Positions 19,127 to 20,291 of a DNA stretch of 28,400 nt are shown here, one piece after another. How positions within the stretch are numbered: the first letter of the stretch is position 1; each line of letters begins with the position of its first letter. The DNA lies in UHGV virus genome UHGV-0126577. One strand, given 5' to 3'. A program made the position numbers and the translations under genes. Under the pieces are notes generated by a model. It saw nothing but the letters and a program-made list of their open reading frames with translations, did not search any database and was not told the origin of the DNA. This stretch comes from a virus.

Positions 19127-19719
19127 TGATTACCATCCTGACGTTCTTTGAGTCGCTTCCTGGCTGCCGCTATGCGATCAGCAATTGTCACATTCACATT
19201 AACATCCAGGCGTTCTTTGAATGCGTTGACGTCGACGTGCTTACCAATCAGTTCGAGGTTCTTCACCTTGTCAGGCCATTTAATTTTTTTGAGGATTGTC
19301 TCTATCGAATCCTCGTTCATGTTCATGATGGTCGATGACAGATCAAAGCCACTAAGCGTAGTGCGCCAGATTTTCGGCCACTCGCGGATTGGCTTAAGGC
19401 TCCCATCGTCGTTGAGGATATCAATCACGTCCATCTGGTCGATCTCCACCAGGCGCATGAGAACGTAATCGGCACTGACGCGCATTCGTTTGTTGCGCTC
19501 CTCCATCAACTCGGCAATCCGTTTTTGAATGCGTTCATCGCGCATCATGACACTGGCTTTAACTGCCGCTGTATTTGGGGAGAATCCTGCGTTAATCGCT
19601 GCCTGAGTCTGGTTTTCAGGCGTTTTGATGTATGACTGGCAATAAGCCTCCTGCATTGCGGTTAGTGGCTTAAATTGCGTTGATTTGCGTTTATAGGTTT
19701 TAGGTTCAGCAGGCATCAT
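19123..19719 (-). CDS. Terminase small subunit (198 aa)
   Basis: Lies directly upstream of, and is coupled to, the large subunit. The track ORF starts at a TTG at 19797; the tandem ATG at 19719 has AGGGTGG upstream. Confidence 0.65.
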   Translation of the reverse strand: MMPAEPKTYKRKSTQFKPLTAMQEAYCQSYIKTPENQTQAAINAGFSPNTAAVKASVMMRDERIQKRIAELMEERNKRMRVSADYVLMRLVEIDQMDVIDILNDDGSLKPIREWPKIWRTTLSGFDLSSTIMNMNEDSIETILKKIKWPDKVKNLELIGKHVDVNAFKERLDVNVNVTIADRIAAARKRLKERQDGNQ

Positions 19720-19761
19720 AACCACCCTGGTAATTGTTACCGTTGTGGTAATAGTACCATG

Positions 19762-19788
19762 CAAAATAAAGCCGCCATAGTTGGCGGC
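19762..19788 (-). terminator. Terminator-like hairpin upstream of the terminase operon
   Basis: GCCGCCA-n4-TGGCGGC stem followed on the minus strand by TTTATTTTG, about 45 nt upstream of the small-subunit start. Analogous in position to lambda tR-prime. Confidence 0.45.
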
Positions 19789-19828
19789 AGTATTCAAAAC
19801 CCATCAAATTCATCATGCATAATCTACT

Positions 19829-19842
19829 CGTGACATGTCACA
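19829..19842. repeat. Perfect palindrome CGTGACATGTCACA, copy 2
   Basis: Identical to 17611-17624. Overlaps the stop codon of the 19838..20176 gene. Confidence 0.8.
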
Positions 19843-20176
19843 CTATTAATTTAGTTTCATGCCAGCCTTTAGTCACCCAGCATTGCGAGTCACCATTACA
19901 CGGGCATGAATTAACGGGAACTTTCTCGCCGCACTTACCGCAACGTTTTCTGCTAATCGATTTTATACGCCCGCGCACGCGTGCATCATCCTGGCGGATC
20001 AGTAACGCTATATACTCCCCAAATTCGTAAGGCGCACGCCCGGGGCGACGCGTGGCACAGTTACGCTCCAGCATTTCCTGCTCCTGCTTATCCAGCACCA
20101 GTTCAATTTTGCGCTCACCGGCGGCGGACTGCCGAGCGCGCTGCGCGGCTTTGCGTTCTGCGGGGGATTTAGCCAC
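19838..20176 (-). CDS. Basic protein with C-terminal Cys4 cluster (112 aa), at the Q-gene position; candidate late regulator
   Basis: GTG at 20176 with GGAG 8 nt upstream. C-terminus has CGKCGEKVPVNSCPCNGDSQC (CxxC...CxC). Lies immediately upstream of the hairpin and terminase. Confidence 0.4.
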   Translation of the reverse strand: MAKSPAERKAAQRARQSAAGERKIELVLDKQEQEMLERNCATRRPGRAPYEFGEYIALLIRQDDARVRGRIKSISRKRCGKCGEKVPVNSCPCNGDSQCWVTKGWHETKLIV

Positions 20177-20291
20177 GAATCGCACTCCACGCCAGATTGA
20201 TTAATGACTCCCAGGTAATATAAACCCGGATACCAGCAGCCAGGCCGAAACCAATCACCATGGCATAAAGCAGAGCGTTGCACTTGTTCAT
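20169..20291 (-). CDS. Small single-pass membrane protein (40 aa), not in the ORF track
   Basis: ATG at 20291-20289 overlaps the upstream stop (TGATG) and has a strong SD AGGAGGT 8 nt upstream. Translation MNKCNALLYAMVIGFGLAAGIRVYITWESLINLAWSAIRG has one hydrophobic helix. Confidence 0.4.
   Translation of the reverse strand: MNKCNALLYAMVIGFGLAAGIRVYITWESLINLAWSAIRG

Follow-up and report, generated by a model that had tools for sequence, protein, structure and literature searches.

What sets the early genes of a prophage apart from its packaging genes, and what governs the step from one to the other? The question is raised by a short junction in the virus genome UHGV-0126577, of which we analysed a stretch of 28,400 nucleotides (the window). 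Here a gene for a 112-residue protein, a terminator-like hairpin and the terminase genes terS and terL follow one another, all on the minus strand. An earlier note, made from the sequence alone, took this arrangement to imply antitermination of the lambda Q type. We find that the terminator and the absence of a lysis cassette at this place are known features of epsilon15-like phages and are mostly ordinary, and that the new part is the 112-residue protein, in which a ribbon-helix-helix (RHH) half is joined to a TraR-like finger and whose presumptive operator contains the stop codon of its own gene. We put at roughly 0.4 the probability that the protein acts as a DNA-bound factor at operon boundaries, a roadblock to RNA polymerase, a proposal that comes from comparison of sequences.

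A palindrome at the stop codon of a small phage gene

The window is a Uetakevirus (epsilon15/phiV10/TL-2011b-like) prophage of a type common in E. coli, and the region in question is the boundary between its early-right operon and its packaging-late operon. Four features are needed first:

20176-19838, minus strand: gene of the 112-residue protein, epsilon15 gp49/N15 gp46 family, GTG start
19830..19841: palindrome A, GTGACATGTCAC, 12 bp, with the TGA stop of the 112-residue protein gene inside it; putative cognate DNA site
17612..17623: palindrome B, a second exact GTGACATGTCAC, at the convergent junction with terL
17628..17647, plus strand: terminator of the plus-strand open reading frame (ORF) 17185-17607, from a terminator scan, abutting palindrome B

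The mechanically called ORF runs over 19838-20185 and gives 115 residues from a GTG; the 112-residue form, from the GTG at 20176, is that of TL-2011b, phiV10 and epsilon15. The protein is 81-91% identical to its epsilon15 and phiV10 counterparts and belongs with epsilon15 gp49, phiV10 p55, N15 gp46 and phiKO2 gp45 to the family PHROG 536; the similarity of gp49 to N15 gp46 is noted in the epsilon15 record. The RefSeq entries of epsilon15 and TL-2011b label the homologue a transcriptional regulator, as do PHROG and PGAP, and elsewhere it is called hypothetical. There are 727 close matches, all unnamed, and about 185 clusters at 50% identity, carried by podo-, myo-, sipho- and P2-like phages. 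We found no functional study or paper on the gp49/gp46 family in the literature. Within the family, the Uetakeviruses share the position of the gene, the hairpin and the operator layout.

The stop codon of this gene lies within the palindrome GTGAC-N2-GTCAC, and the register G-TGA-C-NN-GTCAC is kept in 74 of 80 Uetakevirus-like loci and in 50 of 52 N15-like loci. The same stop register is found in N15, phiKO2 and KpLi5 (GTGACTGGTCAC), in a Yersinia P2-like phage in which the gene follows gpA (TGTGACGCGTCACA), in Pantoea AH07 (GTGACCTGTCAC) and in the distant P0215 group (L268), where protein identity is only ~34%. In ZF40 and in locus L269, where the stop codon has moved, the palindrome is still there, a few nucleotides further downstream; the copy of an Aeromonas homologue is degenerate, and a Vibrio homologue lacks one. 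Among the last sense codons are GTG, GCG, TTG, CCG and CTG, always with G in third position. Because the codon varies yet keeps its G, and because the site survives a moved stop, the site is conserved in its own right and not as a by-product of coding.

Exact copies number three per genome in epsilon15, Tyrion, N15 and ZF40 and two in the window, where 0.03-0.05 per genome would be expected (Poisson P 1e-5 to 6e-4). Given the strict linkage of gene and site, the protein probably binds GTGAC-N2-GTCAC as a dimer. CRP and FNR were dropped as candidates for the palindrome, the spacing of the half-sites being wrong for them. Also rejected was a P1-Lpa-like promoter with the palindrome at -22 and TAGATT as the -10, which fits site A of the window only and not the other sites or the insertion-bearing relatives.

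The additional copies in the Uetakeviruses have a place of their own. Palindrome B lies between the stop codon of the plus-strand ORF 17185-17607 and the terminator of that ORF, 4 nt from each, and site B lies 0-4 nt from a terminator at a convergent junction in the window, epsilon15, phiV10 and Tyrion. Site C, which in the Uetakeviruses follows the last gene of a structural or ant unit, has the same 0-4 nt spacing from a terminator at a convergent junction in epsilon15, phiV10, Tyrion and TL-2011b. A further N15 copy lies after gene 33. When viral contigs were scanned for the 14-mer TGTGACATGTCACA, mostly loci with no family gene in the slice were returned, and 32 of the 120 slices held one.

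Some copies elsewhere deserve a separate record. In ZF40 (L090) the internal 14-bp TGTGACATGTCACA copies at 5125 and 7622 lie inside gp08 and gp12 (a putative "cII"), flank cI-cro and are read in the same frame, as C-D-M-S-Q. The second exact palindrome of Pantoea AH07 (L272, 34430) lies in the "antitermination protein" gene gp52 and encodes C-V-T-C-H; it may be a chance outcome of coding a CxxC motif or a real target. At ~9933-10070 of the Yersinia phage vB_YenM_31.17 (L088/L091), the palindrome is followed by a half-site (CGCGTCACA) and the LexA-box-like TACTGTACATAAATACAGTA and then by the gene of a 64-residue protein, possibly a Tum-like antirepressor.

The protein joins a ribbon-helix-helix half to a TraR-like finger

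The 112-residue length and the C-terminal CxxC...CxC cluster described in the earlier note are both borne out, the cysteines being arranged as C79-x2-C82-x8-C91-x-C93-x5-C99, with H106 invariant among close relatives. C79 and C82 are present in every one of 58 diverse members and C99 in nearly all, and C91 aligns with a conserved "GC" of most. Searched against Pfam, NCBIfam and the PDB, the sequence itself gave no match, and Foldseek against the PDB and viral models gave no useful full-length match.

The AlphaFold2 (AF2) model reaches a pLDDT of 94 with a deep alignment and of 61 with a shallow one. It contains helices at 5-18, 30-42, 52-74 and 100-108, a zinc knuckle at 79-99 and, before helix 30-42, the non-helical segment RKIELVL with alternating hydrophobic residues, in keeping with a beta-alpha-alpha fold of RHH type with alternating hydrophobics in the strand. 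E. coli YbfE is an RHH protein, and its NCBIfam model is matched by the N-terminal halves of 21 of the 58 members, below the curated cut-offs; the C-terminal halves of a few match NCBIfam TraR/DksA models, again below those cut-offs. A profile search of the PDB returned TraR and YbiI at E ~0.05. With hhalign, residues 46-108 align to a small TraR/YbiI/DksA alignment at 85-91% probability, with a score of 36.3 against a maximum of 15.6 in 40 shuffles, among them shuffles with the cysteine columns held fixed.

The protein is thus best described as a YbfE-like RHH half fused to a TraR/DksA-like C4 zinc finger in which the fourth ligand is displaced, and the homology and structure searches that the earlier note had proposed for it gave these two similarities and no match to Q. 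Residues 46-108 align with TraR 5-67 as a helix, a CxxC...C finger and a C-terminal helix. In the TraR/DksA finger, CxxC-x17-CxxC, only C79, C82 and C99 have counterparts; the CxxC that would hold the fourth cysteine is missing, C91 standing in for it, and the helix that TraR inserts into the polymerase channel is here helix B of the RHH. The lambda protein Orf73 belongs to the TraR/DksA C4 zinc-finger family. With respect to YbfE and the RHH proteins CopG, Arc and MetJ, the window protein differs in a longer inter-helix loop, in the fused zinc finger and in having its site at the 3' end of a gene and not at a promoter; no site of the GTGAC-N2-GTCAC type is present at ybfE. A regulatory role of the protein at the operon boundary is plausible.

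A probable terminator, a candidate late promoter and operator-like sites follow the gene

Downstream of the palindrome, in the order of transcription, lie:

19762..19788, minus strand: intrinsic-terminator-like hairpin at the end of the early-right operon (stem 19788-19771, T-run 19770-19762)
19759-19751, minus strand: candidate late (packaging-operon) promoter, extended -10 TGgTACTAT, without a recognisable -35; read from the sequence, with predicted activity
19736..19752: operator-like site O1, read on the minus strand as ATTACCACAACGGTAAC; it overlaps both the -10 and the start site predicted for the promoter
19718..19734: operator-like site O2, read on the minus strand as ATTACCAGGGTGGTTAT; it overlaps the start codon of terS and the ribosome-binding site before it
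19716-19123, minus strand: terS, terminase small subunit, first gene of the packaging operon (Pfam Terminase_2, E=1e-29; annotation of relatives)
19126-17651, minus strand: terL, next after terS

The start codon of terS is the ATG at 19716 or at 19719, and the 112-residue protein gene ends 121 nt before terS. Within this gap, where the earlier note had placed it, lies the hairpin. Its stem, GCCGCCA-ACTA-TGGCGGC, has seven pairs, six of them G-C, and a 4-nt loop, and is followed by TTTATTTTGC to 19762. With TTTATTTT as the U-run after the stem, this intergenic, GC-rich stem-loop has the form of an intrinsic terminator, a likeness that the same note had seen. The stem has an energy of -12.6 kcal/mol (-16.2 with the flanking A/U pairs), and the fold of the 151-nt junction has a z-score of -3.0 relative to shuffles. 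Terminator-like patterns are not rare here, 15 being observed in 10 kb against 9.7 +/- 2.7 expected, and because such simple patterns are common in this stretch the case for the hairpin rests on position and conservation. It is kept in 77 of 80 related IMG/VR loci and also in epsilon15, Tyrion and a Klebsiella phage, with a nearly invariant stem in which the sole change seen is one-sided and keeps the pairing (A-U to G-U). In the phiV10 and epsilon15 records this very junction already carries the annotation of a rho-independent terminator. The hairpin is very probably a factor-independent terminator of the early operon; a search of the junction against Rfam returned no known RNA.

The extended -10 of the candidate promoter, TGnTA[CT]TAT, is equally well kept, in 77 of the 80 relatives as well as in epsilon15, Tyrion and the Klebsiella phage, and its variation across all of these is limited to the n position and to a C>T change in the hexamer. 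O1 and O2, placed in tandem, are copies of a motif, ATTACC-N5-GGTAAT, which occurs nine times in the window against 0.84 expected. Other occurrences, found by motif scan, and the gene of the presumed repressor are:

25610..25626: operator-like site in the cro-cI intergenic region, which ties the motif to the immunity repressor
26322 and 26384: operator-like sites downstream of cI, on the side of the leftward operon
16572..16588: operator-like site ahead of the late unit that comes next (gp3 homologue, 16482-16276, followed by the portal gene)
25681-26265: cI gene, full-length homologue of SPC32H Rep (PDB 5D50), E=4e-42

In the epsilon15 record the equivalent of O1 is annotated as repressor-binding, as is the equivalent of the 16572 site (2931-2947 in epsilon15). 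The "repressor" sites of epsilon15, of the form ATTACC-N5-GGTAAT, lie in the immunity region and before terS, gp3 and the tailspike gene, and Tyrion carries the same operator upstream of terS, of gp04 and of the gene for the tail fibre, with a near-copy (one mismatch) ahead of the lysis genes. We assign the sites as operators on the strength of the epsilon15 annotation, the motif statistics and the homology to Rep. It is likely that terS and terL are transcribed from their own extended -10 promoter under two operators of the prophage repressor, the SPC32H Rep homologue, and that the late genes of the Uetakeviruses are controlled directly by this repressor at several promoters. A further operator-like pair (23218-23234 and 23280-23296) lies between the lambda-P-like gene and the DUF1064 gene and suggests an internal repressor-controlled promoter in the early-right operon; Tyrion has the equivalent pair at 37264 and 37326.

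A proposed roadblock at operon ends

The mechanism that we favour, at the probability given at the outset, assigns the late genes and the palindromes to different proteins. The repressor would hold the late genes off directly, at terS and at the other late units, and not by way of a Q-dependent terminator close to a promoter. The 112-residue protein, bound at the palindromes, would stall or capture RNA polymerase arriving there. At its own stop codon it would limit both its own synthesis and read-through downstream, and at the two remaining Uetakevirus sites, both at convergent junctions, it would strengthen the terminators that lie beside them; speculatively, the TraR-like module may contact the polymerase.

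A boundary role is favoured because the only feature common to all cases is that the protein's own gene has a site at its 3' end, whatever follows it, because two of the three Uetakevirus sites lie at convergent junctions, where read-through would be harmful, and because the spacing to the late promoter is not conserved. A precedent for the first of these is found in LacI, which at operator O3 reportedly acts as a 3'-end roadblock that gives truncated lacI mRNA and SsrA tagging (work of Abo and colleagues from 2000). There too the regulator's site overlaps the 3' end of its own coding sequence, which would allow self-limitation without touching the operon promoter; the likeness is purely one of analogy. 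By the same analogy, a 3'-end site would suit a gene placed last in a long operon, both for self-limitation and for gating read-through.

Several observations weigh against this mechanism. The extra sites in N15 repA, ZF40 gp08 and gp12 and the Q-like gene of AH07 are intragenic with no terminators nearby; the coupling of site to terminator is therefore a feature of particular lineages. Between site A and the terminator there are 22, 41 or ~225 nt, a variable distance. The candidate promoter on which control by the repressor depends lacks a -35 and goes unreported by a consensus scan, which demands one. The AF2 model is of a monomer, so the RHH beta-ribbon lies outside it. Finally, the order of site and then terminator fits a roadblock and DNA-loaded antitermination alike.

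If the protein does act on elongating polymerase at the ends of operons, phages would have a new way to insulate or time transcription units, and synthetic biology would gain a compact, portable protein-site pair. Of lasting interest in any case is a widespread, uncharacterised pair of protein and site, in which knowledge of the site makes the hypothesis directly testable.

Antitermination and other readings of the palindrome

The reading that survives best beside the roadblock, though we consider it unlikely, is Q-like antitermination: the protein would bind the palindrome, engage RNA polymerase coming from the early operon and carry it through the hairpin into terS, and do likewise at the other site-terminator pairs. 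The layout resembles that of lambda Q with pR'-tR' (and of Q21, Q82 and N15 gp40), in that a terminator-like hairpin stands between the last early-right gene and the late genes and a DNA site lies upstream of the terminator. No Q homologue was found among the early-operon ORFs of the window that were scanned. On the transcribed strand, each of the three Uetakevirus palindromes is followed by an intrinsic terminator. At sites B and C the U-tract comes ~30-42 bp after the palindrome, a placement resembling that of the lambda Q-binding element relative to the paused polymerase. The TraR-like module, as a possible contact with polymerase, would also serve such a role.

However, the protein is too small and too different to be a Q, as the earlier note had seen: it is about half the size and has no homology to the Q families of Pfam and NCBIfam. 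The conclusion which that note drew from the hairpin, antitermination of the lambda type, is unsupported. A lambda-type arrangement has a constitutive promoter with the Q-binding element and, close behind it, the terminator (pR'-tR'). In the window the candidate late promoter and both operators that overlap it or follow it lie downstream of the hairpin. Upstream of the hairpin there is a single promoter match:

19812..19841, minus strand: sigma-70-like match GTGACA-N18-CATGAT, 9 of 12 positions, from a consensus scan; the sole such match upstream of the hairpin

It is split by the insertion of a 70-residue ORF in 26 of the 80 relatives and by a different insert, an 85-residue ORF, in the Klebsiella phage ST512-KPC3phi13.3 (L273), and is probably not functional or not essential. 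With the sole upstream match broken in this way, there is no conserved pR'-tR' unit, that is, no conserved promoter between gene and terminator and no fixed spacing from site A to the hairpin. The inserts part two modules, the gene with its palindrome on one side and the hairpin, -10 and operator on the other. Homologues of the protein also coexist with annotated Q-type genes and occur where no terminator follows. N15 has gp46 together with gp40, a "late transcription activator", and an annotated promoter-terminator pair, and in Pantoea AH07 the homologue lies in a leftward operon beside xis, with a separate "antitermination protein" gene (gp52) before the lysis genes. Site B faces the reverse-oriented accessory gene, and read-through there would give RNA antisense to terL. 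Proteins that bind in the secondary channel are not known to suppress intrinsic termination.

The gap between palindrome and terminator is a hot spot of insertion. The 70-residue ORF lies, for example, at 3335-3600 of locus L006 and in 25 further IMG/VR loci; the 85-residue ORF of the Klebsiella phage has a promoter of its own, TTGACT-17-TATACT, overlapped by the LexA-box-like TACTGTTTAAATATACAGTA. Neither inserted ORF has a match in Pfam.

A bolder proposal, which we think decidedly unlikely, is that the gp49/gp46 proteins regulate elongation at specific sites and form a class that is new. As a dimer on GTGAC-N2-GTCAC, the RHH protein would present its TraR-like module to the secondary-channel face of the oncoming polymerase, and would either hold the polymerase, as a programmable terminator perhaps resistant to Gre rescue, or board it in the manner of Q, replacing Q in the Uetakeviruses. 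The matS-like half-sites could also mean cross-talk with host MatP.

Improbable, too, is a classical late activator that from the palindrome would act on the weak extended -10 of terS and on other late promoters in the style of P2 Ogr or P1 Lpa. Small zinc-containing late activators do exist (Ogr, Delta and B), the candidate promoter without a -35 might need help, the centre of site A lies ~90 bp upstream of the predicted start site, and the "transcriptional regulator" label of PHROG and PGAP would suit. Yet the spacing from site to promoter is 52, 70 or ~256 nt in close relatives, with no helical phasing; sites B and C stand at convergent gene 3' ends, hundreds of base pairs from the next late promoter; the promoters of gp3 and of the tailspike gene have no palindrome before them; and the site stays at the stop codon where no late promoter follows, in N15, AH07 and the Yersinia phage.

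Very improbable is the view that the palindrome is not the protein's site at all and is an RNA element of the 3' untranslated region or a sequence at a junction of module recombination, linked to the gene by descent. Insertions or accessory genes do lie directly beside every copy, and the site is always in a transcribed 3' region. As RNA, however, it would form just a 4-bp stem; its conserved half-sites and varying central dinucleotide are the pattern of a DNA site bound by a dimer; the linkage persists down to ~34% protein identity and across four unrelated phage architectures; and the fold of the adjacent gene's product typically reads short palindromes.

Least probable of all is a MatP-like organiser that would bridge the two or three sites or compete with host MatP, looping or condensing the phage genome: MatP is also of the RHH class, its site matS (GTGACRNYGTCAC; PMC6907758) has half-sites, GTGAC and GTCAC, identical to those of the palindrome, and the phage sites are few and dispersed, but the spacer is 2 and not 3 bp, the protein is phage-encoded with only 2-3 sites per 40-kb genome, homology to MatP was rejected at the sequence level (hhalign probability 0.2%), the AF2 model has neither the four-helix bundle nor the C-terminal coiled coil, the window has no 13-bp matS site, and bridging would leave the stop-codon register and the adjacency to terminators unexplained.

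Gene order and the place of the lysis genes

TL-2011b covers 83% of window positions 1-25000 at 97.8% identity, and phiV10, phiv142-3 and ZX5 are further nucleotide matches to the window. The junction region, taken as 600 bp, was found in 701 of 5,426 complete E. coli genomes. The gene order is that of the Uetakeviruses: the early-right operon, the gp49 homologue, terS-terL, an accessory gene or tRNA, the portal and structural genes, the tailspike and then the lysis cassette.

No holin, endolysin or spanin gene lies between the 112-residue protein gene and terS, as the earlier note had correctly observed, but the two are separated by only the 121 nt already described. That note had also suggested locating the lysis genes elsewhere in the prophage, and in the relatives this is where they are: holin, endolysin and spanin genes lie 3' of the tailspike and O-antigen genes in phiV10, epsilon15, Tyrion and TL-2011b. 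By alignment to TL-2011b, the lysis cassette of this prophage should lie ~8 kb past the left end of the window. Since the Uetakevirus order puts the lysis genes after the tailspike, their absence at the junction is no sign of an unusual arrangement; it is the normal, ordinary gene order of the group.

Two ORFs precede the 112-residue protein gene in the direction of transcription:

20845-20291, minus strand: DUF551 gene, the first listed in transcribed order, before the 41-residue ORF
20294-20169, minus strand: ORF for a putative membrane protein of 41 residues, whose stop overlaps the GTG start of the 112-residue protein gene

The slot just upstream of the 112-residue protein gene is variable, holding the 41-residue ORF in the window and a DUF2591 protein in TL-2011b; in the phiV10 RefSeq entry an "ASCH domain-containing protein" feature overlaps the match to this slot. 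In the window, TL-2011b, phiv142-3, phiV10 and epsilon15 alike, the GTG start of the regulator gene is overlapped by the 3' end of the gene upstream.

Beyond terL, the accessory ORF 17185-17607 (plus strand, 140 residues, no Pfam match) lies in reverse orientation between terL and the portal region, a spot at which relatives hold different ORFs. A tRNA-Arg(UCU) at 16910-16986 is also on the plus strand, opposite to the late genes (ARAGORN; Rfam 73 bits), and is followed by plus-strand terminator-like hairpins at 17030-17065 and 17150-17165; the phiv142-3 record annotates the tRNA on the other strand. In the DnaT/HTH_36 replication gene (24115-24930, minus strand), tandem 24-bp repeats of TGGGATCATTCAACATCCCGTTTTTGGG at 24537-24580 encode a repeated PKNGMLND and are probably origin iterons; the terminator scan flags them spuriously.

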